Numbered from the stretch's first letter, positions 15,590 through 37,204 are shown. The stretch is 64,000 bases of DNA from an uncultured Lachnospiraceae bacterium (GCA_964498965.1 CAZCJU010000001.1:38008-102007), one strand, 5' to 3'. Translations and numbers: made by a program. Notes: generated by a model not told the origin, from the letters alone.

Positions 15590-15601
15590 TTCCGTCCTCC
15601 G

Positions 15602-17269: not shown

Positions 17270-17281
17270 TACCCATCCCCC

Positions 17282-20413: not shown

Positions 20414-21358
20414 TCAATCGAAATAATCGATATCTACGCCCGATTTATACAGATCGAGAGCCGTATTCAGCTGTTCCATCGTATATCTCGGATTTTTGGA
20501 GGCGACGATGTTTTTGTATATATTCGCGAAATCGCGTGCGTAATCGTTTGAATCACGCAAGGTTTTCACTATTTCCTTTACCCTGTCGTCATAGCTTTCC
20601 GATTTCTTTTTGGACGTTATCTCCTTGCGGAATTTATTCACCATGGACGAATATCTCGAACTTCCGAATATGCTTTCTGCGTTTTCGGCGTTCACGCCCG
20701 TCACGGATTGATATATCCGTTGCATCTCGTCCGAGGTCTTTGCCTTTTCGAATTCCGTAAGCATTCTGTTATACAGCTCCGTTCTGTACGCCTCGATCGT
20801 TCCGCCGTCCGACGTGCCGGAGCCGGAGGAGGAGTAGGTGCCGTATTTTTTATCGGATTCCGCTTTTTTGAAGTTCAGCTCTTCTCTTTTCAAAGCGTTT
20901 TCCTCCTCGTCGCTTTGAGCCTTGTAAAGCTCGTCCGCAAGCTCTTTATCCGCTTGAAGCTGTGCTTCCGCCCGCTTCGCCTCGATGTCGGACAGTTTGC
21001 CGTTTCTTTCCGACAAAAGCGTGTCGAGTCGGCTCTTGCTGTCGCGTCCGAGCTGTGCCAGATCGGAATTATACGTAAGCTCGCTTTTAAGCTTCATATC
21101 GGTTTCCAATCCGCTTCCCGAATAGCCGTTATTCGTAATGTAGTAATTGAGATACCTACTCGCTTTCGCCTTGTTTGCGGCAAGAGCGTTTTTTTGTTTC
21201 TCGTAAGCGTCGTTTTCCGTTTTGACTTCGCTGTCGTAGCTTTCGTTCGCCACCGCCGCCAAAGCGTTGTACGCTCGGTCTATATTCTCCTTTTTGTCGC
21301 TGTTCAACAGCTGTGCCAGCTGCTTATATGCCTTGTATGCATTGCTTTCGCCCGCCAT
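20414..21358 (-). CDS. Phage-like coiled-coil protein, function unknown
   Basis: 314 aa, rich in K/E/A/S heptad-like sequence (LQADKELADELYKAQSDEEENALKREELNFKKAESDKK). Last gene of the cluster. No catalytic motif recognised. Confidence 0.45.
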   Translation of the reverse strand: MAGESNAYKAYKQLAQLLNSDKKENIDRAYNALAAVANESYDSEVKTENDAYEKQKNALAANKAKASRYLNYYITNNGYSGSGLETDMKLKSELTYNSDLAQLGRDSKSRLDTLLSERNGKLSDIEAKRAEAQLQADKELADELYKAQSDEEENALKREELNFKKAESDKKYGTYSSSGSGTSDGGTIEAYRTELYNRMLTEFEKAKTSDEMQRIYQSVTGVNAENAESIFGSSRYSSMVNKFRKEITSKKKSESYDDRVKEIVKTLRDSNDYARDFANIYKNIVASKNPRYTMEQLNTALDLYKSGVDIDYFD

Positions 21359-21370
21359 TCGATCCCTCCT

Positions 21371-22129
21371 TTAATCGACCGTTCGCTTGTATCCGTAAAC
21401 GAATACCGCACCGCCGCCTCCGCTTACTTCGCCCCAGCCGCCTCCGCCGTAGCCCGACGGATTTTTAACATCGTCCCTTACGGCTCCTCCTACCGCACCC
21501 TTGCCGTAGGTCAGGCAGTCGCCGCCTTTGCCGTAATCGTCAGTGCCGTCGCCGTAAACGCTGTCCGTGCCGTATATTCCGCTTCCTCGTGCGATCTTGG
21601 AATATTCGCTTCCGACGCCGCCGCCCGAGGCGATGCCGATGTATTCCTCTCCGTCCTCGCTCATAAAGCTCGTCGTTTCGCCGACTTGACCGACGCTTCC
21701 GCCTCCTCCGACGGTCACCGTATAACGTCCGGACAGCGATACTCCGTTTATGAGCGACGCATCGCCTCCGCCGCCGCCGAGCGTTACCGTGCCGACGTAG
21801 CCGCCGCCACCGCCGCCTATAAGCACGATATCGTACAAGCCGTTGTAGCTTTCGTATTCGTCCGTGTCGAAAACATATTCGCCCGTCTTGGTAAACGAGG
21901 CAAGACGCACTCTCGTCGGAATGTATTTGTACCCTCCGTCGCCGAGTACCGTGTTCGCCAGCTCGTCCAAAATGCACGGAATGAGCGTGTCGTTTATGTA
22001 ATTTTTGATTATGTTTCCGCTCTCGTCGAATTTCGCCTTGAGTGCCTGCGGCGTGTAGTCCGGGCTTGCGGGCGAATCGGGCAAAGCGGAAATTATGTCC
22101 ATGCTTTTTTTCAGCTTTTCAATTGCCAT
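21371..22129 (-). CDS. Glycine-rich tail-fibre-like protein
   Basis: 252 aa. The N-terminus (ISALPDSPASPDYTPQALKAKFDESGNIIKNYINDTL) resembles N-termini of Firmicutes phage tail fibres. The C-terminal half carries poly-Gly blocks (LIGGGGGGYVG, LGGGGGDA, VGGGGSVG, GYGGGGWGEVSGGGGAV). Confidence 0.55.
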   Translation of the reverse strand: MAIEKLKKSMDIISALPDSPASPDYTPQALKAKFDESGNIIKNYINDTLIPCILDELANTVLGDGGYKYIPTRVRLASFTKTGEYVFDTDEYESYNGLYDIVLIGGGGGGYVGTVTLGGGGGDASLINGVSLSGRYTVTVGGGGSVGQVGETTSFMSEDGEEYIGIASGGGVGSEYSKIARGSGIYGTDSVYGDGTDDYGKGGDCLTYGKGAVGGAVRDDVKNPSGYGGGGWGEVSGGGGAVFVYGYKRTVD

Positions 22130-22204
22130 TCGATTTCCTCAAATTCTTTTTTCGAGATCTCAAAATTTTCATTGTTCGGTTGTAAACCTTTTCCTTTTAT
22201 GTGA

Positions 22205-22340
22205 AGGCTTCTCGGGAAGCTTCTGTGCGATAACGCCCTCATCCGTCAAGCCTTCAAATCGCCGCCTCCCCCGAAAGAGGACGACTTACGGGGGCGGTTA
22301 CCGCCTTCCCCCGGAGGAGGAAGGCTTACGAAGCGGGGTC
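22205..22340. repeat. REP-like GC-rich hairpin element inside the phage-like cluster
   Basis: gccttccccc-ggag-gaggaaggc hairpin (22303..22325), plus cctcatccgtcaagccttc and ccccgaaagagg words of the family. Lies between the endolysin and fibre genes. Confidence 0.7.
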
Positions 22341-23376
22341 AACGGTTTACTTTTATCAAATGCTCCGTTGCACACCAGGTAGACAGCGATGAGCCGATCT
22401 CGCCCGTTTTTCTGTTCACCTTTCTGCCGAGCAGCACGCACTCCGCACCGTTTTTCAGCACCTTATTACCTCGGGAATCGGCTGTTTTTTCCGCAATATA
22501 ATCGTAATCCCGCACCCATTTCGGAAAATTCGCACTGCCGGGTGCATACGAGCTTTTATCCTCTCGAAGCCGCACGACATCTCCGACCTTTATCGTCGTT
22601 TTTTCATTCGGTATAAGAAGCTTTTGACCGACGAATATCAGATTCGGGTCGGCTATACCGTTATATTCGGCAAGGCACTTATACTCCGTACCGTATTTTT
22701 TCGCCACGGCGTAAAGGGTATCGCCCTTTTTCACGATATACTCCGTCGTTCTCCCGTCTGTTTTTTCATTTTCCTTAAGCGACAGCCTAAAGTACTCGGC
22801 TATAGCCTCCGCTTCGGCTTTTGCGACGAGCTTCCTTTTTTCTCCGTCCGCCATAAATCCGCACTCGGCTTTGTTCGTATGGAAGCCGTGTTCGATGATA
22901 TACGAGTATTTCAAGCCGTTTTTCACGCTTGAGCGGATAACGCCGTAATAATCGAGTATTTCGCCGTTATTCCCCTCATATGTCCTCGTCATAACGCCTC
23001 TCAAATATGTTTTGGACGTATGCTTTCGCATTACCGTCGCTACCGCCTCGCCGAGCTTCACGCCCAGTTTGTCGCTCTCGTAGTTTTTTATGCTTCTGAA
23101 AACGGACACGCCGTGAGCCTTTTCGCTGTTTGCGGCATTCGTATGTAACGATATGAACAGCTCCGAGCCGTTATCCCTCGCTGTCTTTCCTCTTTTTTCG
23201 AGTGTCGGGTCGTCATCGACGCTTTGTCTTGTGACGTAAACGTTCACGTCGGCGTATTTTTCAAGCTCTGCTTTAAGCTCGTATGCCAGCTCGAAAACGG
23301 CACTGCCCTCGTAATAGCCGTCAACGATGCCCTTATTCGTATATCGACCGTGACCGGGATCGAGAGTTATCGTCAT
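22339..23376 (-). CDS. Endolysin: N-acetylmuramoyl-L-alanine amidase (Amidase_3) + LysM + C-terminal binding domain
   Basis: 345 aa. Amidase_3 start ITLDPGHGRYTNKG...ELFISLHTNA...EHGFHTN. LysM motif YIVKKGDTLYAVAKKYGTEYKCLAEYNGIADPNLIFVGQKLLIP. SH3-like tail. Confidence 0.9.
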   Translation of the reverse strand: MTITLDPGHGRYTNKGIVDGYYEGSAVFELAYELKAELEKYADVNVYVTRQSVDDDPTLEKRGKTARDNGSELFISLHTNAANSEKAHGVSVFRSIKNYESDKLGVKLGEAVATVMRKHTSKTYLRGVMTRTYEGNNGEILDYYGVIRSSVKNGLKYSYIIEHGFHTNKAECGFMADGEKRKLVAKAEAEAIAEYFRLSLKENEKTDGRTTEYIVKKGDTLYAVAKKYGTEYKCLAEYNGIADPNLIFVGQKLLIPNEKTTIKVGDVVRLREDKSSYAPGSANFPKWVRDYDYIAEKTADSRGNKVLKNGAECVLLGRKVNRKTGEIGSSLSTWCATEHLIKVNR

Positions 23377-23645
23377 TATTTTCCGTCCTCCGTATCCGTA
23401 ATGTCTTTAATAAGCTCGAACGAGCCGTTCGACGAGAGCGACACAAAAGCTCCGTTCACAAAGCACAGTACAAGCTCTCCCGACGAATACGAGCCGGTAA
23501 AAAAAGCGGCAAGCACGAGAAGCGTGACCGCAACGCCGTAGCTCAGCAATCTTGTCGGGATATGAACGGGAACAAGCTCGTCGAAAAGCTCTTTAAGCAG
23601 CTGCGTAAGCAGTGTGACCGCAACGCACGCTCCCGAAAAGCTCAA
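23376..23645 (-). CDS. Holin-like small membrane protein
   Basis: 89 aa with two hydrophobic segments (ACVAVTLLTQLL; LLSYGVAVTLLVLAAFF) and an acidic tail. Sits between the xhlA-like and amidase genes, and its stop overlaps the endolysin start. The true start is uncertain: TTG in the track, and the frame is open 21 codons further upstream without a canonical start. Confidence 0.5.
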   Translation of the reverse strand: MSFSGACVAVTLLTQLLKELFDELVPVHIPTRLLSYGVAVTLLVLAAFFTGSYSSGELVLCFVNGAFVSLSSNGSFELIKDITDTEDGK

Positions 23646-23739
23646 TATACCGCTCCAATCGGTAAAATTCGCAACATCCGCGATATTCGTAATACTATTC
23701 GTAATATTGATTTCCTTTCTTTATAAACGTCCGACAAGC

Positions 23740-24030
23740 TCACAGCCGAGCGGCGAAAAAGCCTATCAACGCCGAGGTGAGAGCGGAAATTATCGCATTT
23801 ACGAATTTTTCGCTTCGCCTCGTCGGAACGCTTTCGAGCCTGTCTATACGCCCGCCATGCTCGCTTATCGTTTTATTCGTATGCTTCAGCTCCGAGGTCA
23901 GCGTGGTCAATGCCGTATTCATCACTCTAAGCTCCTTTGTCAGTTCCTTTATCTCGTTTATCTGGTGCTGTAAGGATTTAATGCTTTGGGATTGACAGCT
24001 TAACGTGACGGAAATCTCCTCCTCCGTCAT
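23740..24030 (-). CDS. xhlA: XhlA-family protein (lysis-associated, coiled coil + C-terminal TM)
   Basis: 96 aa. Coiled-coil N-terminal part (IKSLQHQINEIKELTKELRVMNTALTTLTSELKHTNKTISEHGGRIDRLE) and a C-terminal TM segment (NAIISALTSALIGFFAARL). The order XhlA-holin-amidase matches the PBSX lysis cassette. Confidence 0.6.
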   Translation of the reverse strand: MTEEEISVTLSCQSQSIKSLQHQINEIKELTKELRVMNTALTTLTSELKHTNKTISEHGGRIDRLESVPTRRSEKFVNAIISALTSALIGFFAARL

Positions 24031-24043
24031 ATGCTCACCGTCC

Positions 24044-25786
24044 TTACGTGCTTGCGAAAAGCACTATTTCGTTCACCGTACATCGTCCGTCCGCCTCATC
24101 GTTTTCCATTCTCAGCTTAACACTGTCGACACCTCGCAGATTCAGTCGCCGTTCGACCGACGACGGTCTGCCCTCACACTCAAACGAAAATCTGTTGAAA
24201 TCCATTGCGGAAAAATCGAATGCCTCACAGCAAAAGCACCCGTCCTCGCCGCATACCTTAGGCACGCCGACATTCGGCGAAACGGTTATTTTGACGTTCG
24301 TATGCGGCTCCGGAATGAGCGAGGCGGAAAGTCGGTAAATGTTTTTTCTGCCGTTCACCCCGAGATCCGCAAACGAGCTTTCCCATACCGCCTTGTATGC
24401 TCGCCCGTCGTCGGTGTACGTACCTTCGCCGAAGCGGTACAAGCCGTTTTCGTTCGAAAAATACACCGTTCCGTCGCAATCGTAAAACCTTTCGGCGTTT
24501 ATCCCGTCGTAAAAATACCACGCCGCACGCCTGTAGTTATATACGCAGATCGTGCCGCCGTAGGCGAGCCACGCCTCGCCCGCACCGGTTGCGTCGAAAA
24601 CGGTACAGTTTTCGAGAAACTCCCTCGTCAGCAGACGATCTACGGGAGATGAGATACGCTGTGCGTTTTTTTCGTCACGCACGTTCGTACCGCTCCAAAC
24701 GTAAACGCCGTCGGGGCTTACGGTAAGCGGTATGTTGTTGACCGGCACGCCGCCGTCCCTTATACAGCCGACCTTGCCGTTGAGCGGAAAGATCGGATAT
24801 GCGTTTTTCGTGTAATCGCCGTCCTCGACGCTCGATTGGGAAATGTACCATGCGTCCTTTTCGGTAAATACCGCAAGCGTCGAATAATGACGCACGAGCG
24901 AGGTGACCGGCGTGCCGTCGCCGACACGAATGAAGTTGTTTACGGGAAAATACATACAGTCCGCTCCCTTGTCCGTCACATCGGAGTAATATATCACATT
25001 GTCGCCGCCGTATACGAAAAGTGCCGAGTCGGTTCGAGAACCGAACGCACAAAAGCTCTTTTCGTAAAACAGACTCCTGTCGGGAAAATTCGGGTCCTTT
25101 AGCGAAAAAGTCACCTCAAGCCCGTCGGGAACCGACGAGGACGGAATGTGCATGAGCGTAAGCGTTCTCTTGCTCCTGTCGTAGCTGTAGCCGTCGGCGG
25201 GCAACGCAAGTCCGTTTTCTACCACGCCGACCACCGATAACGCCTCGGAGGGAAGCACGAAATTCGAGCTTGTGCCGTTCGGCGAATACGAAATTCGAGC
25301 GTAGGGCGACAGGCGGTTGAGCGATTCGAGTGCTATGCCGCCGCCCTCGTTCGGTGCGGTCACCGCCACCTTCGGTATGTACGGCTCGCATTTTCTTATG
25401 TTGTACCCGTCGAAAGTCAGGATATCCTCGCCTCCGACGATGTAAAGCGTGCCGCCGAAAACAAAACAGCTTCTTTTCGTCGTTTCACCCGTGTCGTATT
25501 CGACCGTCGAACCGTCGTCAAGGCTTTTTGCGATCACCGTCGTTCCCGATTGATAAACATACTTGATTCCCCTGCCCATACGTCCGCAATACAGCCCGTT
25601 TGCGTCCGAAATTTCCGCCACACGCTCGTAGCCGCTTCGCTTTTTGAGCTTTCCGTCGTCCGTTATTCGCCAATTACGCATATAAACGGCGTTTTTTACC
25701 TGCGAACCGAGGCGTCGGGTGCAATCCGTGCCGCCGAAATCGTCAAGCGTCATTCTGACGCTCGGCGTTTTTTTGAACAGCATCAT
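24044..25786 (-). CDS. Phage-like structural protein (580 aa; tail/nozzle-like, beta-rich)
   Basis: Position is downstream of the capsid and adaptor-like genes. Beta-rich repetitive sequence with many G/Y/V/T. No enzyme motif recognised. The function is inferred from context only. Confidence 0.45.
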   Translation of the reverse strand: MMLFKKTPSVRMTLDDFGGTDCTRRLGSQVKNAVYMRNWRITDDGKLKKRSGYERVAEISDANGLYCGRMGRGIKYVYQSGTTVIAKSLDDGSTVEYDTGETTKRSCFVFGGTLYIVGGEDILTFDGYNIRKCEPYIPKVAVTAPNEGGGIALESLNRLSPYARISYSPNGTSSNFVLPSEALSVVGVVENGLALPADGYSYDRSKRTLTLMHIPSSSVPDGLEVTFSLKDPNFPDRSLFYEKSFCAFGSRTDSALFVYGGDNVIYYSDVTDKGADCMYFPVNNFIRVGDGTPVTSLVRHYSTLAVFTEKDAWYISQSSVEDGDYTKNAYPIFPLNGKVGCIRDGGVPVNNIPLTVSPDGVYVWSGTNVRDEKNAQRISSPVDRLLTREFLENCTVFDATGAGEAWLAYGGTICVYNYRRAAWYFYDGINAERFYDCDGTVYFSNENGLYRFGEGTYTDDGRAYKAVWESSFADLGVNGRKNIYRLSASLIPEPHTNVKITVSPNVGVPKVCGEDGCFCCEAFDFSAMDFNRFSFECEGRPSSVERRLNLRGVDSVKLRMENDEADGRCTVNEIVLFAST

Positions 25787-25799
25787 AGTTTTCCTCCCG

Positions 25800-26174
25800 T
25801 CAAGAATATACGTCCTTTATCTGCGATATGTCGGCGGGAAGCGAGGCTATGTACCTCGCCCTCGCCGCCTCGTATTCGCTTCTGAGCCTGTCCGAAAGTG
25901 CGGGATTTTCGTCCGCACACAGCAAATACGCAAGCTTTATCGAACATAGCCAGCCAAGCGGCTCGTCAAGCGGAAACGCACCGTCAAGCCCCGAAAACGG
26001 CGACGGCAGTACCGCCGTCCCGCTTTCGCCCGTCGTCCTTTGCAAAACGGACAGCTCGCTTATCACCGCCCGCAGGAGCAATGGCGTCCTCTCCCTCAGC
26101 TCCCGTGCGTTTGCCGTCGTGCTGTCCTCGGAAATGTACGCACAAGCCGTATCGAATATGTCGGACAGCAGCAT
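25800..26174 (-). CDS. Small phage-like head-completion/adaptor-like protein (124 aa)
   Basis: Start ATG 26174 lies 2 nt after the capsid-gene stop (TAA-AA-ATG). The longer track ORF overlaps the capsid gene. Function assigned from position only. Confidence 0.4.
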   Translation of the reverse strand: MLLSDIFDTACAYISEDSTTANARELRERTPLLLRAVISELSVLQRTTGESGTAVLPSPFSGLDGAFPLDEPLGWLCSIKLAYLLCADENPALSDRLRSEYEAARARYIASLPADISQIKDVYS

Positions 26175-26176
26175 TT

Positions 26177-27010
26177 TTACGCCTCCTCGCCGAGCGTAAC
26201 GTCCAAAAGCATAAGCTCCTTGGGGTAAACTATCTTCGCTCCGTAAAGGTGAAGCCCCTTCACCGCATCGGCAAATCTCTTCTCGGGGCGGTATGCCTCG
26301 ACCTCGTTTATCTGCTCCGCAAAGGCTATGGCTCGCTTCGTTCTCGCAAAACATTTATATGCACCGCCGTTTTTGACGATATTGTTCGAAACGTATACCT
26401 TGAAGCCCAAAAACGTACCGATACAGCCTTTGTCAAGCTCGCTCTCGTTGCTCGTGCCGTTCATTATCTTCGCCTTGATTATCTTTGCGGCAACGGCGGG
26501 CGTAACCTCCAAAATTATCTCCTCGTTACCGGCTACGTTGTTTTCGAGCAATGCCCGACGTACCCCGAGGAGCAGATCGATAACTCCGTCCGACGTGAGA
26601 GAATCCGCTTTTACCGTGTTCTCCGCGGATACCGAAGAATAAAGCGAATAAATGTATTTGTCCGCTTCGTCGGATAATGCGGAAGCGGCAATGCTCATCG
26701 CCTCCTGCATGAGCTTGGGCGTGGATTGTGCTTTGTCTATGTCGTCTATCAAAAAGTTGAAGCCCTTTGCCCTGTCGATAACAAGCGAACGCTCCGAATC
26801 CGAAAGCTCCTCCGGAGCTTCCATGTCCGTGTTCTTTTCGTAGTCGAATACACTTATCGGATTGATTCCGATTATCTTTACCGTGTCGCCGATGCTCTTG
26901 ATGTCACCCTCGAAATCCCGACTGCAATTTTTCACGCCGATGTATTCCTTTTCAAGCTCTCTGTAAAGCGTTTCGCTCCATATTTTGGGTATAAAATAAG
27001 AAAGTGCCAT
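26177..27010 (-). CDS. Major capsid-like protein
   Basis: 277 aa. The N-terminus MALSYFIPKIWSETLYRELEKEYIGVKNCSRDFEGDIKSIGDTVKI resembles small P22-coat/HK97-fold capsid families of Firmicutes phages. Sits after the portal and scaffold-like genes. Confidence 0.6.
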   Translation of the reverse strand: MALSYFIPKIWSETLYRELEKEYIGVKNCSRDFEGDIKSIGDTVKIIGINPISVFDYEKNTDMEAPEELSDSERSLVIDRAKGFNFLIDDIDKAQSTPKLMQEAMSIAASALSDEADKYIYSLYSSVSAENTVKADSLTSDGVIDLLLGVRRALLENNVAGNEEIILEVTPAVAAKIIKAKIMNGTSNESELDKGCIGTFLGFKVYVSNNIVKNGGAYKCFARTKRAIAFAEQINEVEAYRPEKRFADAVKGLHLYGAKIVYPKELMLLDVTLGEEA

Positions 27011-27039
27011 TTTTTATCTCCTTTTAAATTTAATTTCAT

Positions 27040-27140
27040 TAAGCCTTCCCCCTTGGGGAAGGTGTCAGCCGAAGTCCCCACTTCGTAAGGCTTCCCCCTT
27101 GGGGGGTAGGTGTCGATCCGAAGGCTTGACGGATGAGGAC
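27040..27140. repeat. REP-like GC-rich hairpin element inside the phage-like cluster
   Basis: ccttcccc-cttg-gggaagg (27044..27062), aaggcttcccccttggggggtagg, and gtcgatccgaaggcttgacggatgaggac, which recurs almost verbatim at 61782..61810. Confidence 0.75.
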
Positions 27141-27153
27141 ATTATCCCGCCTC

Positions 27154-27209
27154 ACATCGATCGTCGATCGTCGAACGTCAATCGTCGAACGTCGAACGTC
27201 AATCGAAAA
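27154..27209. repeat. Tandem array of about eight 7-bp units (WCGTCRA)
   Basis: acatcga tcgtcga tcgtcga acgtcaa tcgtcga acgtcga acgtcaa tcgaaaa. It starts at the stop codon of the 114-aa gene. Confidence 0.85.
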
Positions 27210-27543
27210 AGCCGCCTTGCTCCATGCTTTCGACTATCGCGATATAATTTTCTCTGACCTCTTTATCCGTCATGCACGCAACCTGCTTTGCCGTAAAAAA
27301 GCCGTTTTTGCCGCCGAGGCTTATTTTGCCCGAGCTTTCCCGGCGGTTTTTGCCGTTCACACGCTCCGCCACGCCTCCCAAGCTGTCTTTGTCTATCAAA
27401 TATCTCGCATACGCTTCCTTAAGCGAGCCGCCGTCGGCTACACTTCGCCACACCGTATCGGGTATTGCGTCGGGATCGACCTCGGGATATGCGTCGAAAA
27501 GCTCCTCGATGCTTTTCGATATTTTATCTTCCTTATCGCTCAT
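27199..27543 (-). CDS. Scaffold-like small acidic protein
   Basis: 114 aa, acidic N-terminus. The C-terminal motif FTAKQVACMTDKEVRENYIAIVESMEQGGF resembles phage scaffolding-protein C-termini. Lies between the portal and capsid genes. Confidence 0.4.
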   Translation of the reverse strand: MSDKEDKISKSIEELFDAYPEVDPDAIPDTVWRSVADGGSLKEAYARYLIDKDSLGGVAERVNGKNRRESSGKISLGGKNGFFTAKQVACMTDKEVRENYIAIVESMEQGGFFD

Positions 27544-29116
27544 TTATTGCGTTTCCTCCGTTTTCCGCTTTTTCTTCTTTATTTTTCTCAAGCTCCTCGA
27601 GTAACCCGCCTCTGTCGGGTATTATTCCGTCCGGCAGACGCGACAGATACTGCTCGAAGCTTATAAAACCGCCCGAAAGGAGCTTATCGAGCGTATTTAC
27701 CGTCACCGCAAGCGAATATCGTACTCCCGCACCGACATCGACCTTGCAGCCGATGAGCGAATCGGCGAACGCACGCTTGTCGGGCAAGTGACCTCCCGTA
27801 TGCTCGCCGTTTTCGGTATACGGCAGCAATCGCTCGGGCGGACAATATTCTATAAGCATTTCCGACCAGCTCAACGCCACGTCCTCTATCGCCGCATACA
27901 GGCTCTGACGCAGGCTTTCAAGCGGTATGTCGCTCGCCTCCTGCAAAGCTATTATGGCACTCGTATTATTCGGGCTTACCTCGCCCAGTGCCGTATCCGT
28001 CGCTCCCATAAGCTCTTTCGTGTCACGCATCGTCATCGAAATTATTTCGAGAATGCCGCTCTGCATTTCTCCCGTTCCGATCACCGATGCCGCCGAACGT
28101 ACATCGCCGCCCCGCACGCCTATCGCCTCGCCGACCTCGTTGCTCCACTCGGGTATGAGGCTTTTATCGTATACGACCTTGGAAAACGCCGTATCCGTCA
28201 TGTGCTTCATCACCATGGCGTATGCTTTGTTGATGTATTTCTGATTTTCGATAAGCGACGTTACGGGGGCTTGTCCTATATAGCTGCCTTTCGTCCGCTC
28301 CCATGCGAAAACCGCTATCGGATATCGCTTAAGTCCCGTAGTGCATTCGGCTATCACCGCCTGCCTCGTGCTTTTTTGCCATACGACATGCCCGTTTTCA
28401 TCACGCGAAAACCTTATGAGGTACGTGCAGTTGCTCTCCGTTCCGCTCTCCGTATCGAACAGCTCCCCCGCACCTCTGCCCTCCGGTCTGTCGGCGGTTA
28501 TAAGCGACAAGGTATGCTCATCCGCTCCGTTCCCCTTCGCCTCCCTGCGAAGCGATTCCACCGATGCCCGTCCGCTTATCATCACGTATTCCTGCGACTG
28601 TATATCGTCGCTGTTCACACTTGCCACAAACAGCTCCGTGCTGTCACACAGCACCGTTTTGATATCGCCCGAAAACGGCTGTCCCGTCTGCACATCGGCA
28701 TCCCAATACGTATAAAATACGCCGTTGCCGCTTATCGCCGCATCGAGCAACGCATTTCGTATAAGCACCTCAAGCTTCGATTTGTCGAAGCGATATTCGG
28801 CGTTTTTGTTTAATAACGCTATCCCCTCTCGCCGCTGACGCTTGTAACCGTCCTCCTGCGTGCAAAACAACGCCTCATCGCTGTAATTTATATGTATCGG
28901 CTGTGCCGAAACGGAGCTTATCATGTAATTTATAACACGCTTTATCACGTTGAATACGGGCTTGGGAAGCTCCGCCGAATTTACCCCCGCCCACTGCTCG
29001 CCCCGATAAAAGCGTTCGTTTTCCCGCACACGGGAATACAGACCGAGCTTACGCTTGTATTCCGTTCCCGCTTCGTATTCCTCCCATGCACGTGTCAGCT
29101 TTTCGTTACCGCTCAT
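27533..29116 (-). CDS. Portal protein
   Basis: About 527 aa from ATG 29116 (GGAGAAGG RBS). The N-terminus EYKRKLGLYSRVRENERFYRGEQW is portal-like. Sits immediately after TerL. The 84-codon upstream extension in the ORF track overlaps TerL and is rejected. Confidence 0.7.
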   Translation of the reverse strand: MSGNEKLTRAWEEYEAGTEYKRKLGLYSRVRENERFYRGEQWAGVNSAELPKPVFNVIKRVINYMISSVSAQPIHINYSDEALFCTQEDGYKRQRREGIALLNKNAEYRFDKSKLEVLIRNALLDAAISGNGVFYTYWDADVQTGQPFSGDIKTVLCDSTELFVASVNSDDIQSQEYVMISGRASVESLRREAKGNGADEHTLSLITADRPEGRGAGELFDTESGTESNCTYLIRFSRDENGHVVWQKSTRQAVIAECTTGLKRYPIAVFAWERTKGSYIGQAPVTSLIENQKYINKAYAMVMKHMTDTAFSKVVYDKSLIPEWSNEVGEAIGVRGGDVRSAASVIGTGEMQSGILEIISMTMRDTKELMGATDTALGEVSPNNTSAIIALQEASDIPLESLRQSLYAAIEDVALSWSEMLIEYCPPERLLPYTENGEHTGGHLPDKRAFADSLIGCKVDVGAGVRYSLAVTVNTLDKLLSGGFISFEQYLSRLPDGIIPDRGGLLEELEKNKEEKAENGGNAINER

Positions 29117-29175
29117 TGTTCCTTCTCCCCCCGTCCTCGGGCTGTACCGTAAAGCCGTCGGACTAATGACTATGA

Positions 29176-30483
29176 CTAATAGTATATTATACTGCTTCTG
29201 TTCTCGGCCCGTTTTCGCCTCGCTTCGTACCGCTCCCTTTCCGTCCGAGCCTTTTCCGGTCTTGACATCACAAGATATCTCAACGCCTCCGGCAGGTGCG
29301 TTATCGAATGCGGCTCGCTCGAGCAGTCCTCCGTCCTCGTCTTGTCGTAGGTAAGCAACGACAGACAACGGTACAGCTCGGGACAGGCTCTCGAAATGTA
29401 CAGCTTGCCGCTTCCGCCGTGTATGTATTCTCTAAGCACACGCCAGCCCGGCACACGCCTGTCGTCGGCTCGTATCAGCGGTGCTATGCCGTCAAACGAT
29501 GCCATTATCTCAAAGCCCGACCGACCCGTGTCCTGCCGCCTGTTCCAAAGGTCCGGCGAGGCGGCTATGTATTCGCAGGCGTAAACGGAGCAACGCCTCG
29601 ATATTTCCTCCGCCGCCTCCGATAACGTCAGCCCCGAACGGTAATACTCGTGTATTATGTACAGATTTCCGTCGCTGTCCGCCGTGCCTACGATAAACGC
29701 AAGCATATCAAAGCCGTAGTCAAGACCGCCGAACATTCGCCAATGCTTAGGCGGCGTGAACGGCTCGCAAAGGTGCGTTTCGCCGAGTGAGGGAAAAAAC
29801 TGTCCCTCGAATACGTCCCATTGCCCGTACAACCACGCACGGCGAAGTCCCTCGGGCAAACTCTCCAATTGCTTTATATATTCTCCGTCCTTTTCAAGCA
29901 GTGCTTTGTTGTCGTAGGCACTTGCCTGTATAAACCCGTATTCATCTCCGTCCTCGCCCTGCAAATACCGCCTGTCGATAAATAATCGCTTCACCCACGC
30001 ATGACCGACTCCGCCCGGATTGCACGTCAGATACATTCGCTTCGGAAAACCGTTCGTGCCTCGTAAACATGCCTTGAGCGTCGAAAACTGATACTCCGTC
30101 AGCTGCGTTGCCTCGTCAAGGGCTATAATGTCGTATTCCTGACCTTGATATTGAAGCGTGTCTCCGTCGTCGTTCATGTAGCCCGGCTTGAGCAACGAGC
30201 CGTTCGGAAATCTGAAGCATTTCTCCGTTTCCGAATATTTCACACACCCGCCAAGCTCCGCCCGAAGCGGCATTATGTGATTGTACCTAAGCTCCGGATA
30301 ACTCCGTCGTATTATAAGACACCGTATGCCCGGATAGCGAAAGCATAACAATATCAGCTTTCGCCGCAATGCCCAGCTCTTGCCGCCCCCTCTGCTCCCG
30401 CCGTATGCCGTGTACTTTTTCTTCGAAGCGAAAAACAGCTTTTGCTTCTCGTTCGGCTCGCCCGCCAGTATAAGCTCTCGCAC
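29176..30483 (-). CDS. terL: Terminase large subunit
   Basis: 435 aa. Walker A YGGSRGGGKSWAL, Walker B-like YDIIALDEAT, and a C-terminal RNaseH-like nuclease region (GLDYGFDM...). Confidence 0.9.
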   Translation of the reverse strand: MRELILAGEPNEKQKLFFASKKKYTAYGGSRGGGKSWALRRKLILLCFRYPGIRCLIIRRSYPELRYNHIMPLRAELGGCVKYSETEKCFRFPNGSLLKPGYMNDDGDTLQYQGQEYDIIALDEATQLTEYQFSTLKACLRGTNGFPKRMYLTCNPGGVGHAWVKRLFIDRRYLQGEDGDEYGFIQASAYDNKALLEKDGEYIKQLESLPEGLRRAWLYGQWDVFEGQFFPSLGETHLCEPFTPPKHWRMFGGLDYGFDMLAFIVGTADSDGNLYIIHEYYRSGLTLSEAAEEISRRCSVYACEYIAASPDLWNRRQDTGRSGFEIMASFDGIAPLIRADDRRVPGWRVLREYIHGGSGKLYISRACPELYRCLSLLTYDKTRTEDCSSEPHSITHLPEALRYLVMSRPEKARTERERYEARRKRAENRSSIIYY

Positions 30484-30484
30484 C

Positions 30485-30814
30485 TTATTCGTAATCCCCG
30501 TGCGAGCATATCACATTGATGTCGCCGCCCGTATCCTCGCCGACACCGTAGCCGAACCGCTCCTTCATGTAAAGATTCAAAACGGACGACGATATCCTTT
30601 TCGTGTTCGCATTCAATGCCTCGTCCTCGAATACGGAGTCTATAAGCTCCGCTTCCTCCTTGTTTCTTCGGCAAAGCTCGTCGAATTTTTCACGCGTCAG
30701 GTGCATATATCTCAAATACCCCGCACGGTTCGGTATACGCTCCCGCTCCGCACACGCCTCAACATAATTCTCCACACTTTGCAAAAACCTTTTTCCGCTC
30801 ATCGCCGCATTCAT
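30485..30814 (-). CDS. terS: Terminase small subunit-like protein
   Basis: 109 aa, directly upstream of TerL with a 1-nt gap. The HTH-like N-terminus (FLQSVENYVEACAERERIPNRAGYLRYMHLTREKFDEL) is typical of small terminases. Confidence 0.6.
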   Translation of the reverse strand: MNAAMSGKRFLQSVENYVEACAERERIPNRAGYLRYMHLTREKFDELCRRNKEEAELIDSVFEDEALNANTKRISSSVLNLYMKERFGYGVGEDTGGDINVICSHGDYE

Positions 30815-31005
30815 AATATCCCTCCGTCACAGATAAACTCAAAAAGCCTCTCGGCAAAGCTCTCTAACCCCTCCTCGTCCGCAAGCTCGGCTAAGTCGCT
30901 TACGCACAGCTCGTTTACACATTCTCTGCATATGCCGCCCGTGCAGGTTCGAAGCACGTCCTCTTCGTCCGATTCCCTACAGCAAATCTGACACCTGTTC
31001 GTCAT
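30811..31005 (-). CDS. Cys-rich (zinc-finger-like) 64-aa protein, first gene of the phage-like cluster
   Basis: ATG 31005 with an AAGGAG RBS 6 nt upstream. Sequence MTNRCQICCRESDEEDVLRTCTGGICRECVNELC... contains CxxC...C...CxxC. ATGA overlap with terS. Confidence 0.5.
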   Translation of the reverse strand: MTNRCQICCRESDEEDVLRTCTGGICRECVNELCVSDLAELADEEGLESFAERLFEFICDGGIL

Positions 31006-31045
31006 TTTCACTCCTTTTCGAAATTTCAAAATCGATCCCAAACAC

Positions 31046-31059
31046 CGAACATTTGTTCG
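31046..31059. promoter_or_regulatory. LexA (Cheo/SOS) box
   Basis: CGAACATTTGTTCG is a perfect match to the Firmicutes LexA consensus CGAAC-N4-GTTCG. It lies 41 nt upstream of the first phage-like gene. Confidence 0.75.
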
Positions 31060-31074
31060 GCTATAATTTTCAAC

Positions 31075-31285
31075 CGCCCCTCGCCTTCTCCCGAAGCCGC
31101 TCTCTCATAGCCTTCCGCCCTCTTGGGAAAGATGCCGGCGTAGCCCCCTCCCGTAAGCTTCCACGTAAACCTTCCCTCTCGGGGACGGTGGCAATCGCAC
31201 CCCTTCGTAAGCCTCCCCTACCCCTCGTAAGCCTCCCCTTCGGGGAAAGGTGTCGGCGTAGCCGCCGGATGAAGGCGGTTTTTCT
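31075..31285. repeat. Cluster of REP-like GC-rich hairpin elements in the leader of the phage-like cluster
   Basis: Several family words: gccttctcccgaagc, ccgccctcttgggaaaga, ccttccctctcggggacgg, cctccccttcggggaaagg, and tgtcggcgtagccgccggatgaaggc. Confidence 0.7.
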
Positions 31286-31286
31286 C

Positions 31287-31300
31287 CGAACAAATGTTCG
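31287..31300. promoter_or_regulatory. LexA (Cheo/SOS) box
   Basis: CGAACAAATGTTCG, a perfect consensus in inverted orientation. Confidence 0.75.
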
Positions 31301-31313
31301 GTTGTTATTTTGT

Positions 31314-31327
31314 CGAACATCTGTTCG
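31314..31327. promoter_or_regulatory. LexA (Cheo/SOS) box
   Basis: CGAACATCTGTTCG, a perfect consensus, 27 bp centre-to-centre from the previous box. Confidence 0.75.
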
Positions 31328-31339
31328 CCAATCCTACCC

Positions 31340-31368
31340 TTGACAAGTTTACATTTTTATGATATCAT
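31340..31368 (+). promoter_or_regulatory. Candidate plus-strand sigma-A promoter (thrE-like operon), facing the phage-cluster promoter
   Basis: TTGACA (31340..31345), 17-nt spacer ending in TGA (extended -10), TATCAT (31363..31368). Confidence 0.5.
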
Positions 31369-31388
31369 ATATCGTGATTGCAGCATTG

Positions 31389-31402
31389 CGAACATTTGTT
31401 CG
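31389..31402. promoter_or_regulatory. LexA (Cheo/SOS) box overlapping the start of the phage-cluster transcript
   Basis: CGAACATTTGTTCG, 12 nt downstream of the minus-strand -10 hexamer. Confidence 0.8.
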
Positions 31403-31414
31403 TTTGCATTATAT

Positions 31415-31443
31415 ATTATACCACATTTTTCCGATTTTGTCAA
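31415..31443 (-). promoter_or_regulatory. Consensus sigma-A promoter driving the phage-like cluster
   Basis: Minus strand: TTGACA (31443..31438), 17 nt, TGG-TATAAT (extended -10, hexamer 31420..31415). Near-identical to the cassette at 37205..37233. Confidence 0.75.
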
Positions 31444-34041: not shown

Positions 34042-35219
34042 TGGACTATTCCGAAATGTTATCGAAAACGGCGGTCGAGCTTAAGCCGTCTGGCATACGC
34101 AAATTTTTCGATATGCTCGAAGGCATGAAGGACGTTATCTCCCTCACCGTCGGTCAGCCCGACTTTCCCACCCCGTGGCATATAAGAGAAGCGGGAATAA
34201 TATCCCTCGAAAAAGGCTATACCTATTATACGTCGAACAGCGGAACGATGCAGCTGCGTGAGGAGATATGCAAATACCTCTCCCGCCGCTTCGATATGAG
34301 CTACGACCCGAAAAGCGAGATCATAGTCACCGTCGGAGGAAGCGAAGCGATAGACCTCGCGATCAGAGCGATCGTCGAACCCGGAGATGAAGTCATTATA
34401 CCCGAGCCGTGCTTCGTATGCTACGATCCGCTCGTGCGTTTGGCTCACGGCGTCCCCGTACCCGTAAGCACACGTGCCGAGGACGGTTTTATGCTCACCG
34501 CCGAGCAGATCCGCCGAAAGCTCACGAAACGCACCAAAGCGGTGATATTGCCGTTTCCGAATAACCCGACCGGAGCCGTCATGAGCAAGGAGGAGCTTGA
34601 ACGTATCGCACGTCTGCTCGACGGCACGAATATCGCCGTTTTGTCGGACGAGATCTATGCCGAGCTGACCTACGGCAAAAAGCATATCTCACCCGTTCAT
34701 ATCGACGGAATGCGTGAACGGACGATCATCGCAAGCGGATTTTCGAAAGCGTACTCCATGACCGGGTGGCGGCTCGGCTATACTGCGGCCCCCGCCGAAA
34801 TAACAAAGCAAATGCTTAAAATACACCAGTTCGCCGTGATGTGCGCCCCCACCGCAAGCCAGCTTGCCGCCGTTTCGGCAATGCAAAACGGCGACGACGA
34901 TATCGAAATGATGAAAGCCGAATACGACCGCCGCAGACGCTATATAGTAAAAGGTCTGTGCGATGCGGGCTTGCCGTGTGCCGAACCGCAGGGAGCGTTT
35001 TACGTGTTCCCCGACGTGAGCGGCTACGGTATGAGCAGCGAGGAGTTTTGTCAACGCCTGCTGAATGAAAAAGGCGTAGCCATAGTCCCCGGAACGGCGT
35101 TCGGCGAATGCGGCGAGGGCTATGCGAGGATTTCATATGCTTACAGCGTCAAGCATATCTCAAAAGCACTGGAACGTATTGCGGATTTCACCGCCTCGCT
35201 TCGCTCAGAGCGTTCTTAA
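34041..35219 (+). CDS. PLP-dependent class I/II aminotransferase (aspartate/alanine aminotransferase-like)
   Basis: Motifs NPTGAV and the PLP-lysine region SGFSKAYSMTGWRLGY. About 392 aa. Confidence 0.85.
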   Translation: MDYSEMLSKTAVELKPSGIRKFFDMLEGMKDVISLTVGQPDFPTPWHIREAGIISLEKGYTYYTSNSGTMQLREEICKYLSRRFDMSYDPKSEIIVTVGGSEAIDLAIRAIVEPGDEVIIPEPCFVCYDPLVRLAHGVPVPVSTRAEDGFMLTAEQIRRKLTKRTKAVILPFPNNPTGAVMSKEELERIARLLDGTNIAVLSDEIYAELTYGKKHISPVHIDGMRERTIIASGFSKAYSMTGWRLGYTAAPAEITKQMLKIHQFAVMCAPTASQLAAVSAMQNGDDDIEMMKAEYDRRRRYIVKGLCDAGLPCAEPQGAFYVFPDVSGYGMSSEEFCQRLLNEKGVAIVPGTAFGECGEGYARISYAYSVKHISKALERIADFTASLRSERS

Positions 35220-37017: not shown

Positions 37018-37031
37018 CGAACATTTGTTCG
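37018..37031. promoter_or_regulatory. LexA (Cheo/SOS) box
   Basis: CGAACATTTGTTCG, 50 nt upstream of the GTG start at 36968. Confidence 0.75.
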
Positions 37032-37040: not shown

Positions 37041-37162
37041 CGAAACCGTCGCTCCCCTCGACTTATCCGTTTTTCACAATACCGAATTTCAATATCTCGC
37101 CTTAACCGACTAAACCCCACTTTGCATATAAAACCTGCCGGCTTTGCCGAACATTTGTTCGC
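37041..37162. repeat. Decayed tandem duplicate of the 5' end, RBS and LexA box of the tail-fibre-like gene
   Basis: 37041..37162 aligns with 36903..37032 at roughly three-quarters identity by eye. Shared strings: cgaaac..tcgc..tcccctc.gacttatccg...caata..gaattt.aata...cgccttaac...cacttTG.ATA.AAA.CT..CCG....CCGAACATTTGTTCGC. The upstream copy has GAG in place of the GTG start and an in-frame stop. Confidence 0.75.
37148..37161. promoter_or_regulatory. LexA (Cheo/SOS) box
   Basis: CGAACATTTGTTCG, part of the duplicated unit. Confidence 0.75.
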
Positions 37163-37180
37163 CAACTTCCCGAAGAAAAG

Positions 37181-37194
37181 AGAACATTTGTTCT
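37181..37194. promoter_or_regulatory. LexA-like box (AGAAC-N4-GTTCT) just downstream of the promoter
   Basis: AGAACATTTGTTCT: the GAAC-N4-GTTC core is intact but the flanking bases differ from consensus. It occupies the same position relative to the -10 as box 31389..31402. Confidence 0.65.
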
Positions 37195-37204
37195 CGCATA
37201 TTAT

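Follow-up and report, generated by a model that had tools for sequence, protein, structure and literature searches.

The defective element PBSX of Bacillus subtilis is 28 kb long and myovirus-like, with sheath, tube and tape measure, and is controlled by an Xre repressor of its own. A role in lysis or killing has been proposed for it. FpGTA of Faecalibacterium prausnitzii is a podovirus-like gene transfer agent (GTA) encoded by two operons (Borodovich et al., Nat Commun 2026, PMC12946183); its 40-nm particles carry about 9 kb of host DNA and are specified by a podovirus-like gene set analogous to the one described below (PMC12946183). In RcGTA, LexA exerts only an indirect effect, through CckA (PMC9638019). 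In GIL01, a temperate phage of Bacillus thuringiensis, host LexA acts on boxes of the CGAAC-N4-GTTCG type at the main promoter and replaces a phage repressor (PMC4551915).

We analysed a 64-kb stretch of DNA from an uncultured Lachnospiraceae bacterium (hereafter, the window) containing an 11-kb cluster of phage-type genes. The cluster probably belongs to a GTA-like particle-and-lysis system that derives from a podovirus, has become domesticated and fixed in the chromosome, and is gated directly by host LexA.

Gene content of the operon

ORF calling in the window identified thirteen intact, co-directional genes on the minus strand between positions 20414 and 31005, each where the original prediction had placed it. 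Matches to family profiles showed the flanking genes to encode an AMP-binding enzyme on one side and a ThrE exporter on the other, in line with the ordinary metabolic surroundings expected. No att-like direct repeats were found around the cluster and no GC anomaly was apparent.

The first gene (30811..31005) encodes a Cys-rich 64-aa protein with two CxxC motifs; family searches gave no match. It is followed by a small terminase candidate of 109 aa (30485..30814), identified by a GP3_package match under the Pfam cut-off (E 1.6e-4) and by its position immediately ahead of the large terminase gene; this ORF is kept in 67 of 80 related loci. The large terminase, TerL (29176..30483), matches Terminase_3, Terminase_6N and phrog_979 (E 1.6e-46). 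The portal (27533..29116; 527 aa counted from the ATG) is of the P22/podovirus type (P22_portal, E 5.5e-17), with more than 1600 homologues recovered in a homologue search. Next comes an acidic 114-aa protein (27199..27543), kept in 62 of the 80 loci, whose location between portal and capsid makes it a scaffold candidate. The 277-aa major capsid protein (26177..27010) belongs to an HK97-type family (phrog_267, E 8e-45; Phage_capsid_4) and is 41-45% identical to those of Aeribacillus AP45 and C. perfringens phiCP26F-type phages. Between capsid and tail genes lies a helical 124-aa protein (25800..26174), a candidate head-to-tail adaptor whose family occurs in 57 loci and which had no match in PDB or Pfam.

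The adjacent gene (24044..25786) codes for a 580-aa protein originally described as beta-rich. Structure prediction, one of the checks proposed at the outset, yielded an AlphaFold2 model (pLDDT 86, pTM 0.83) with a beta-propeller. Foldseek searches of PDB returned podovirus nozzle or tail-hub chains as all of the top 29 matches (E 1e-17 to 8e-11), among them Pa223, P22 gp10 (8eap), T7 gp12 and Sf6. Judging from the model, the protein is a podovirus tail nozzle of the P22 gp10/T7 gp12 type, and Bacillus Pagevirus podophages have a homologue in their tail module. Thus, the cluster is not tail-less. The inventory first drawn up was right in that the thirteen genes include no integrase, replication, sheath, tube or tape-measure gene; it had missed that tail genes are present. 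The nozzle fold also bears out the podovirus-like character attributed to the set.

The lysis cassette comprises an XhlA-like accessory protein (23740..24030; phrog_937 'hemolysin', E 4.4e-7), an 89-aa holin candidate (23376..23645) and an endolysin (22339..23376) combining an N-acetylmuramoyl-L-alanine amidase with LysM (Amidase_3, E 2e-26; LysM, E 1e-16). Family searches gave no match for the holin candidate, which was recognized by its hydrophobic segments, charged C-terminus and position ahead of the endolysin. The last two genes encode a Gly-rich 252-aa fibre or spike candidate (21371..22129; Gly_rich_2, E 9.5e-4, under the cut-off), kept in 18 loci of close relatives (class A, see below) with many Gly residues invariant, and a coiled-coil 314-aa protein (20414..21358) without match to families or PDB, kept as the operon's last gene in 17 class A loci. 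The latter is a virion-associated candidate. Overall, families supported the identities first proposed for TerL, portal, capsid, endolysin and XhlA-like protein; those of the TerS-like and Gly-rich proteins have matches below cut-off, and the scaffold and holin assignments follow from position or composition. Any roles of the 64-, 114-, 124-, 252- and 314-aa proteins are predictions.

Promoters and LexA-type boxes

The operon is preceded by a sigma-A promoter on the minus strand (31415..31443) in which TTGACA is separated by 17 nt from a TG-extended TATAAT (12/12 consensus, TG present). The motif TTGACAAA-N10-TGTGGTATAAT occurs only twice in the window. As had been foreseen, the promoter is accompanied by four perfect matches to CGAAC-N4-GTTCG. 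Box 1 (CGAACATTTGTTCG, 31389..31402) lies at about +6 to +20, between two face-to-face start sites; the others are located at 31314..31327 (box 2), 31287..31300 (box 3) and 31046..31059 (box 4, 41 nt ahead of the first gene). The opposing promoter, TTGACA-17-TATCAT on the plus strand (31340..31368; 11/12 match, TG present), points to thrE here and to an S24 repressor-like gene in most relatives; class A leaders retain its reverse-complement motif.

The window contains six perfect boxes against 0.33 expected, a number reached by no shuffle, and all six sit at the operon promoter or at a paralogous one described below. The box is identical to the B. subtilis LexA consensus, CGAAC(n)4GTTCG (PMC4551915). 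These sequences suggest that the operon is gated directly by host LexA, with LexA binding and SOS induction as predictions. The 64-kb window contains no lexA, recA or uvr gene bearing this box, so that the motif is not anchored to the SOS regulon of this genome; in five related loci, the box was absent within 300 nt of recA.

A second locus

The sole other copy of the operon promoter motif in the window lies 5.8 kb upstream of the first, on the same strand (TTGACAAATCCGTCAAAATGTGGTATAAT, 37205..37233; 12/12, TG present), and aligns with it. Sequence reading and promoter alignment place an imperfect box, GAGAACAAATGTTCTC (37180..37195), directly after its -10 motif, followed by perfect boxes 5 (37148..37161) and 6 (37018..37031). 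The gene downstream (35205..36968, minus strand) encodes a 587-aa tail-fibre-like protein (phrog_5240 'tail fiber protein', E 1e-7; phrog_19695) with an anchor domain at the N-terminus and a degenerate, SGNH/GDSL-like domain at the C-terminus. A family scan of 63 sequences (the query and 62 relatives) matched phrog_5240 in 39, Lipase_GDSL_2 in 36 and BppU_N in 3. The nearest relative, L001, has an orthologue at the same place behind a similar promoter with box-like sites, and L133 retains a 169-aa relic of the N-domain there. The paralogous LexA-box promoter in front of this gene implies that the system has at least two loci. The cluster originally assigned to the interval 20414-31443 is real; the second promoter, the boxes at 37018 and 37148 and the 587-aa gene had been left outside it.

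Conservation in related genomes

The genomes of at least 408 species encode related portals; many of these portal genes belong to smaller, head-only clusters surrounded by housekeeping genes. We distinguished close relatives (class A) from more distant ones (class B; portal about 50% identical). The same twelve to thirteen genes in unchanged order are present in 21 GTDB species genomes and 2 NCBI MAGs, and in 16 of these 23 the operon adjoins thrE/thrE2, as in the window; the arrangement thrE-thrE2-PHP-asnC-aminotransferase is common to the window, L001, L132 and L133. A positional homologue of the Cys-rich protein is present in 18 class A loci. Class B loci keep six or seven genes (packaging, head and nozzle) and have no adjacent lysis genes. 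In the related loci, the flanking families checked were housekeeping genes, no integrase or replication gene was detected in any of 80 loci, and more than 80 loci included no case of these genes residing in a complete prophage.

Regulatory sites are conserved as well. The operon promoter is kept in all class A relatives where upstream DNA is present, and every one of these has a LexA-type box upstream of terS. In most class A relatives the 5' end of the first gene carries a perfect box; at the position equivalent to box 1, L132 and L133 carry a box and L004 and L008-L010 a box with one mismatch. A divergent gene for an XRE-HTH + Peptidase_S24 repressor-like protein (f16) adjoins the operon in 13 of 21 class A loci. 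The claim that no phage repressor is involved thus holds for this genome, where the window has no f16 homologue, and fails for the family.

Portal identity tracks that of ThrE, a comparison gene linked to the operon (Mantel r 0.92, reached by 0 of 5000 permutations). Across nine genes dN/dS was 0.08-0.17 (among them XhlA-like protein, 0.08; portal, 0.085; TerL, 0.10; TerS-like and Cys-rich proteins, 0.11; adaptor candidate, 0.13; endolysin, 0.14; holin candidate, 0.17), values that are approximate as dS, 0.66-1.3, is near saturation. The comparative check envisaged originally therefore showed a syntenic locus, co-diverging with the adjacent host gene under purifying selection, and neither the frameshifts nor the relaxed selection that would have spoken for decay. 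From its fixed position, its co-divergence with ThrE and this selection, the element has been kept over long evolutionary time and is not a decaying prophage.

Origin and function of the element

The original prediction had wavered between a prophage remnant and a host-controlled, GTA-like producer of particles. Lack of prophage context, intact ORFs, low dN/dS, synteny and the conserved promoter and box favour the latter. It is very unlikely that head, nozzle and lysis genes are functionless leftovers of deletion and the boxes a relic of an old SOS switch: none of the thirteen ORFs is disrupted, either here or in over 20 species whose portals share only about 60-75% identity, the same pairs of species differ less in capsid and portal than in the adjacent host protein ThrE, conservation of the regulatory sites extends to wobble positions, and the unlinked fibre gene retains a paralogous promoter with the same boxes. 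Such a remnant would fit the absence of integrase and replication genes, the pieces lost in some relatives (the class B reduction; L012 and L017 are without holin and endolysin) and the CI-like S24 gene and face-to-face promoters of relatives, which are typical of a phage switch. Least probable of all is a capsid-forming phage satellite or mini-phage that has retained its mobility and relies on a helper phage to supply the missing functions. Its size of about 11 kb and head-gene content resemble those of capsid-forming PICIs, and short IMG/VR contigs bearing related portals are classed as viral; these relatives, however, are short fragments whose identity does not exceed 49%, and for complete phage contigs of 37-45 kb it is only 33-40%. 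Excisionase, primase/replicase and att repeats are missing along with integrase, the chromosomal site is unchanged across deep divergence, and a helper's tail would not be needed by an element with its own nozzle, fibre and lysis genes.

The remaining alternatives concern function and control. LexA-controlled lysis has precedents in the colicin and pyocin systems, the operon holds a complete XhlA-holin-amidase cassette, and the fibre protein evolves fast, a trait of receptor-binding proteins in killing particles. A device for lysis or killing that is triggered by SOS and transfers no genes, releasing contents, vesicles or a bacteriocin-like particle with DNA packaged incidentally, is still unlikely: TerS, TerL and portal rank with the most strongly conserved genes, a pattern not easily reconciled with packaging being irrelevant; class B retains packaging and head genes plus nozzle while adjacent lysis genes are missing; and the analogous FpGTA particles carry host DNA of discrete length. 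We also give little credence to the boxes being operators of a dedicated S24-family repressor (of the f16 type or a LexA paralogue), forming a private switch separate from housekeeping LexA. Although f16 adjoins most class A operons, L007 and L011 have a perfect box upstream of the -35 on the f16-facing side and the sampled recA upstream regions of relatives have none, the window has the most boxes and no f16, L001, L132 and L133 likewise keep boxes without it, and the box is the canonical Firmicutes LexA operator. CGAAC-N4-GTTCG is not known as an operator of XRE-type HTH proteins. In most class A relatives the adjacent S24-family gene product could be a user of the boxes or an extra layer of control.

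Under the favoured reading, a GTA-like system controlled by LexA, LexA dimers would in undamaged cells occupy the operator at about +6 to +20, three more in the 400-nt leader and two or three at the fibre-gene promoter, silencing both transcription units. DNA damage would activate RecA and cause LexA to cleave itself, and its loss would allow the thirteen-gene operon and the fibre gene to be transcribed together. TerS/TerL, portal, scaffold candidate and capsid protein would then build and fill small heads; adaptor candidate, nozzle, Gly-rich, coiled-coil and 587-aa fibre proteins would finish a short tail; and XhlA, holin and amidase would lyse the cell to release particles. Since the element lacks modules for replication and excision, the DNA open to terminase would be the host chromosome, as in known GTAs. 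Particle formation, host-DNA packaging and transfer are predicted from the genes. The 11-kb operon might fit one head, so that self-transfer may occur as well.

Comparison with known systems

The nearest true phages are the Bacillus megaterium Pagevirus podophages Page, Pascal and Pony and the 37-45-kb IMG/VR phage contigs. Pagevirus nozzles are 25-26% identical to that of the window over 91-93% of length and the Pascal portal, of the same podovirus type, is 29% identical; unlike the window element, these phages have complete genomes of 37-45 kb that include modules for replication, regulation and large tail spikes. LexA-type boxes at the main promoter, read from sequence in the window, are shared with GIL01 and other LexA-borrowing phages; GIL01, however, is a replicating tectivirus needing the small co-repressor gp7, whereas the window element is non-replicating and chromosomally fixed. 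By its genes the latter can be likened to PBSX, an SOS-inducible, defective phage-like element of a Firmicute that packages host DNA. Both have an xhlA-holin-amidase lysis cassette, and the PBSX-family terminase model matches the window TerL below threshold; the window element differs in being podovirus-like, without contractile tail and, in this genome, without an Xre-type gene. With the RcGTA-type agents of Alphaproteobacteria it shares vertical inheritance, purifying selection, a multi-locus 'genome', a short small terminase and control by host regulators (predicted for the window). The tails of RcGTA are siphovirus-like, its protein families are unrelated, and its control runs via CtrA/GafA and quorum sensing.

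FpGTA is the closest known system and has a design in common with the window element, as far as genes reveal it. The element is thus less unusual than first assumed, a podovirus-like GTA from a related bacterial family having been published in 2026 (PMC12946183). Likened by gene order, annotation and structure match, the two come from hosts of the same broad group, gut Clostridia, and consist of phage-derived genes devoid of replication or integration functions. The order TerS, TerL, portal, small protein, capsid, small protein(s), nozzle is common to both, as is a coiled-coil/'TolA-like' end, the 314-aa protein being the positional analogue of an abundant 'TolA-like' FpGTA particle protein. 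The PDB match of the FpGTA nozzle, 8eap, is also among the top matches of the window nozzle. Each system has more than one locus and includes holin and endolysin, with fibre components encoded apart, including a BppU-like fibre and an SGNH/GDSL protein. No Faecalibacterium genome was among the best 80 of the at least 408 portal-bearing species. The window capsid does not match NCBIfam N4-gp56, the family annotated for the FpGTA capsid, and, unlike FpGTA, there is no Prp-like protein between portal and capsid. The lysis cassette lies within the main operon in the window and in operon II in FpGTA; in the former, a lone gene 4 kb from the operon end makes up the second locus, which in the latter lies 125 kb away. 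Perfect LexA operators are present in the window, whereas LexA is not mentioned in the FpGTA paper (PMC12946183). Two marker families, in-operon lysis genes and predicted direct LexA operators would thus set the window element apart from FpGTA.

Operon genes and a predicted short tail

Thirteen co-directional ORFs occupy the minus strand from position 31005 down to 20414, as the original prediction had described. Family searches recognized, all on this strand, the large terminase (Terminase_3/6N; phrog_979, E 1.6e-46), a P22-type portal of 527 aa starting from an ATG at 29116 (E 5.5e-17), the major head protein (phrog_267, E 8e-45), an endolysin with Amidase_3 and LysM domains, and an XhlA-like protein (phrog_937, E 4e-7). 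Sub-threshold matches pointed to a small terminase candidate (GP3_package) and to a Gly-rich protein (Gly_rich_2). None of these searches matched the 89-aa holin candidate or the proteins of 64, 114, 124 and 314 aa, and NCBIfam naming of the operon proteins returned a sub-threshold match to a PBSX-type large terminase alone.

A profile search with the family of the 580-aa protein against PDB sequences gave weak matches only and the protein was therefore submitted to structure prediction. The AlphaFold2 model, built from an alignment of 23 homologues, was confident and all-beta (pLDDT 86, pTM 0.83). When the model was compared to the PDB with Foldseek, the best 29 matches were all nozzle or tail-hub chains of podoviruses (E 1e-17 to 8e-11), including those of Pseudomonas phage Pa223, cyanophage A4, Klebsiella phages Kp7 and Kp9, P22 (gp10; 8eap), T7 (gp12) and Sf6. 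The only homologues found by sequence in cultured phages come from the Bacillus megaterium Pagevirus podophages, whose tail module encodes them as a "virion structural protein". Since the 580-aa protein is predicted to fold as a nozzle, the element does encode a short, podovirus-type tail. This bears out the podovirus-like character proposed for the gene set. The accompanying statement that tape measure, tube and sheath genes are lacking was correct (neither these nor baseplate genes are found among the 13 genes or their flanks), but the short tail had been missed. Profile searches of the 124-, 314- and 252-aa families against PDB sequences yielded chance-level matches only. Their positions in the operon make the 124-aa protein an adaptor candidate, the Gly-rich protein a candidate fibre or spike and the coiled-coil protein a candidate virion protein.

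The flanking genes are ordinary metabolic genes, as anticipated: an AMP-binding enzyme on one side and a ThrE/ThrE_2 exporter pair on the other. No tRNA and no GC anomaly were detected, and repeats at the cluster ends resembling att sites did not exceed chance. Just downstream of the AMP-binding gene, a separate minus-strand group (7843-18151) comprises a gene for a 2204-aa protein with multiple Ig-like domains, followed by two small ORFs, a Ser/Thr kinase and a PP2C phosphatase.

LexA-type boxes at two promoters

The operon is preceded by a promoter (31443-31415) with a 12/12 match to TTGACA-17-TATAAT and an upstream TG, and its leader contains four perfect CGAAC-N4-GTTCG sites, at 31389, 31314, 31287 and 31046; both features had been foreseen. 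Two further perfect boxes (37148 and 37018) had escaped notice. They are positioned behind a second promoter (37233-37205, TTGACAAATCCGTCAAAATGTGGTATAAT), which is a paralogue of the first: the motif TTGACAAA-N10-TGTGGTATAAT occurs at two sites only in the 64 kb, and these are the two promoters. Altogether the window holds six perfect boxes, against 0.33 expected, and no shuffled sequence reached six. CGAAC(n)4GTTCG is the LexA consensus of B. subtilis, and phage GIL01 provides a precedent for a phage run by the LexA protein of its host (PMC4551915). As read from the sequence, the placement of a box just downstream from the operon promoter fits the Firmicutes LexA regulon, and LexA control of the locus is likely.

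A third promoter, on the plus strand (31340-31368), opposes that of the operon. Its inferred start site lies about 33 nt from the operon's, and box 1 falls between the two (31340-31408). It faces thrE in the window and in three related loci (L001, L132 and L133). Because the two promoters face each other around a single box, thrE may be co-regulated or may meet transcriptional interference.

GC-rich, hairpin-forming repeats (CCTTCCCC..GGGGAAGG-CTTACG) are present in the operon leader (31086-31275), in intergenic gaps (27011-27150 and 22230-22340) and upstream of the second promoter (37270-37400); short pieces of them reappear at 22237, 61783, 1428 and 46441. An Rfam scan of the 20-38 kb interval, aimed at the long leader and these hairpins, returned no match. 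The 114-aa gene carries at its 3′ end (27157-27205) a tandem repeat, ATCGTCGAACGTCGAACGTCA, of 2.2 copies that includes CGAAC half-sites.

A separate tail-fibre-like gene

The second promoter drives a 587-aa ORF (35205-36968) whose product resembles phage tail fibres, matching phrog_5240 ("tail fiber protein") and phrog_19695. In an exhaustive search, the N-terminal ~130 residues and the C-terminal ~160 residues each recurred independently in numerous proteins whose lengths vary widely. When the protein and 62 relatives were considered together, 39 of the 63 matched phrog_5240, 36 matched GDSL/SGNH hydrolase models and 3 matched BppU_N; others matched further tail-fibre families. The gene lies 4 kb from the end of the operon, with five host genes, read from the other strand, in between (thrE, thrE2, a PHP-domain gene, asnC and an aminotransferase gene). 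Thus, the system extends over at least two loci, which share a single type of promoter and operator. The corresponding place in L133 harbors a 169-aa relic of the N-terminal domain of the fibre gene. That the 580- and 587-aa proteins might be paralogues was ruled out, as they share no similarity. An AlphaFold2 model of the 587-aa protein, made from two sequences only, reached a pLDDT of 33. Inspection by eye of its SGNH-like domain (residues ~400-587) indicated that the consensus catalytic residues are apparently lost (DGxHPN reads DGLYPN), which suggests a binding rather than an enzymatic role.

Relatives and gene order

Portal homologues at 48% identity or above number more than 1600, and at least 408 species-representative genomes encode a portal relative. 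The best 80 of these genomes are all MAGs of uncultured Clostridia, Oscillospiraceae or "Eubacteriales" from gut and rumen; no Faecalibacterium record is found among these best 80 loci. Gene maps were drawn for the 80 loci and sorted into groups. The closest group, class A (L001-L021; portal 59-75% identical), has the same 12-13 genes in unchanged order, and in 14 of its loci thrE-thrE2 directly adjoins the operon as in the window. Two further NCBI MAGs (L132 and L133; portal 72-74%) carry the operon beside thrE-thrE2-PHP-asnC-aminotransferase, exactly as in the window. Class B (portal ~50%) is limited to terS-terL-nozzle-portal-114-capsid-124 and a third group to terS-terL-portal-114-capsid, both embedded among housekeeping genes such as recA/recX, hprK, valS, rarA, dapA and der. 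No integrase or replication module was found in the mapped loci, none of which is part of a complete prophage. The closest viral contigs in IMG/VR are short, with identities of no more than 49%, and for contigs of 37-45 kb identity drops to 33-40%.

Several particulars of these maps may be recorded here. L022-L080 are minimal head (+ nozzle) clusters of 6-7 genes, at many different sites and with no lysis or fibre genes next to them; most have the nozzle gene placed between terL and portal, and L033, L055 and L061, for example, sit beside recX-recA. Two class A loci (L012 and L017) are without the holin, the endolysin and the Cys-rich first gene and keep a LexA box directly upstream of terS. 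The gap between the 114-aa and capsid genes ranges from ~90 to ~630 nt among relatives. Two unannotated "Bacteriophage sp." scaffolds of ~10 kb from human faeces (MT836592.1 and MT836833.1) match the nozzle at 23-24% identity; the former also encodes TerL (51% identical), a portal (28%) and a capsid in the window's order, the latter besides only a weak TerL match. They were rejected as evidence for a free 10-kb phage, being distantly related, unannotated fragments, neither of which has terminal repeats.

Regulation in the relatives

Every class A locus with upstream DNA present has the same extended -10 promoter as the window, and every one has a LexA-type box upstream of terS. In most, the Cys-rich gene that opens the operon has a perfect CGAACAAATGTTCG at its 5′ end, conserved at wobble positions. 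The boxes of L132 and L133 are placed as in the window, before the -35, just after the -10 and before the first gene, and the fibre-gene promoter of L001 has box-like sites. In class B a box was found in 7 of 46 loci, exactly those with the window-like gene order. Perfect boxes also occur inside terL or portal coding sequences in L132 (9382), L133 (9381), L014 (5932) and L021 (10537), and at none of these places in the window. Within 300 nt upstream of recA in related loci no LexA box was seen; the promoters may lie further away.

In 13 of the 21 class A loci a divergent gene for a CI/LexA-like protein (XRE-HTH plus Peptidase_S24; Pfam E 7e-27) lies between thrE and the operon, and the opposing promoter reads into it. 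Loci with the gene include L007 and L011-L021 (in L017 at 4650-5273, for example). It is absent from the L001, L132 and L133 loci and from the window, which has no homologue elsewhere. We postulate that the switch of an ancestral phage used a CI-like repressor capable of self-cleavage and that, in the window's lineage, only host LexA would remain in control, with an increased number of operators.

Selection, descent and alternative explanations

The original prediction had left open whether the cluster is a decayed prophage remnant. For nine genes, comparison with the closest contigs available (74-90% amino-acid identity) gave dN/dS ratios of 0.08-0.17, which are approximate since dS (0.66-1.3) is near saturation. 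In 15 genomes, pairwise portal identity tracks that of the adjacent ThrE (Pearson/Mantel r 0.92, reached in 0 of 5000 permutations). Given the linkage of thrE to the cluster, this result demonstrates that the locus, and not the whole genome, has co-diverged; portal and capsid are conserved more strongly than ThrE in these genomes. Synteny at a fixed locus in 23 genomes together with purifying selection, albeit with a linked host marker and dS near saturation, indicates the vertical inheritance expected of a GTA. The same observations, and the finding that no relative lies within a complete prophage, argue against decay, and we hold with high confidence that the locus is not a decaying remnant. 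A capsid-forming satellite of the PICI type was excluded, since the position is fixed and genes for an integrase and for replication are missing; att sites are absent too.

Other hallmarks of GTAs are also present: the chromosome carries phage-derived head, tail and packaging genes unaccompanied by functions for replication, integration or excision, and the LexA-type boxes on both units of the two-locus system would provide host regulation. The best explanation of the locus is a GTA-like system of podovirus origin, domesticated and inherited vertically, that has its own lysis cassette and a fibre gene located apart from it, both under canonical LexA operators. That it would package and transfer host DNA rests on the lack of any replication module and on analogy with FpGTA, the podovirus-like GTA of Faecalibacterium prausnitzii (PMC12946183).

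Implications

The locus and its relatives represent a second, much wider set of candidate GTA clusters, in hundreds of gut and rumen species, with what appears a simple switch in the canonical LexA operators of the two transcription units. Provided that this switch works as the sequence suggests, drugs that induce SOS and genotoxic stress of other kinds would lead directly to lysis and to the export of host DNA in abundant anaerobes, which would matter for gene flow and for how bacterial DNA is interpreted in viromes. In addition, the family is a natural series in which to study the taming of a phage, through repressor loss, operator gain and module dispersal. A bolder proposal, which we advance tentatively and would sooner expect to fail than to hold, is that the window is the most compact form of a large, undescribed family of podovirus-derived GTAs, spread over at least 408 uncultured gut and rumen Clostridia species and distinct from FpGTA, in which host LexA directly triggers particles and altruistic lysis. 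DNA damage, including that induced by antibiotics, would then lead to capsid-mediated export of chromosomal DNA. Stages of domestication would be visible in the loss of the CI-like S24 repressor as LexA operators multiplied, and in the scattering of modules into head-only clusters. Such a family could be the missing gene set responsible for the packaging of GTA type that has been reported in Ruminococcus, Gemmiger and other taxa where no GTA operon had been found.

Comparison with known systems

GTAs were long known almost only from Alphaproteobacteria. PBSX, an SOS-induced, myovirus-like element with its own repressor, resembles the window element in its xhlA-holin-amidase cassette (here phrog_937, a holin-like ORF and Amidase_3 plus LysM) and differs in having contractile tail genes. 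RcGTA, unlike the window element, is siphovirus-like. LexA affects it only indirectly (PMC9638019).

The closest parallel is FpGTA, described in Faecalibacterium by Borodovich et al. (Nat Commun 2026; PMC12946183). Its operon I (10.5 kb) encodes TerS, TerL, portal, a Prp-like protein, an "N4-gp56 family" capsid, a nozzle that was matched to 8eap in the PDB, and a "TolA-like" protein of high abundance; operon II (5.5 kb) encodes a BppU-like fibre, an upper fibre, a receptor-binding protein, an SGNH/GDSL protein, a holin and an endolysin. The 40-nm particles carry 8.4-8.9 kb of host DNA. That paper covers one genus, gives no regulatory mechanism and never mentions LexA; GTA-like packaging was also observed in Ruminococcus, Gemmiger, Onthomonas and Christensenellaceae, where its authors did not find the responsible genes (PMC12946183). 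By gene order and annotation, as opposed to sequence comparison, the two systems share the succession TerS, TerL, portal, capsid, nozzle and coiled-coil protein (RCH50852 to RCH50844, Supplementary Data 2), with a nozzle matching 8eap in both. In contrast to FpGTA, the window capsid is without the N4-gp56 match annotated for RCH50849 and has no NCBIfam match at E < 0.01, and no Prp-like protein (RCH50850) lies between portal and capsid, the window's 114-aa protein being without Pfam or NCBIfam match. The lysis genes of the window element lie within the main operon and, unlike FpGTA as published, it has LexA operators. The kind of element has been known since 2026; what is new is the direct SOS wiring, likely on the evidence of its operators, together with the layout in one operon, the marker families, which differ, and the very broad distribution.
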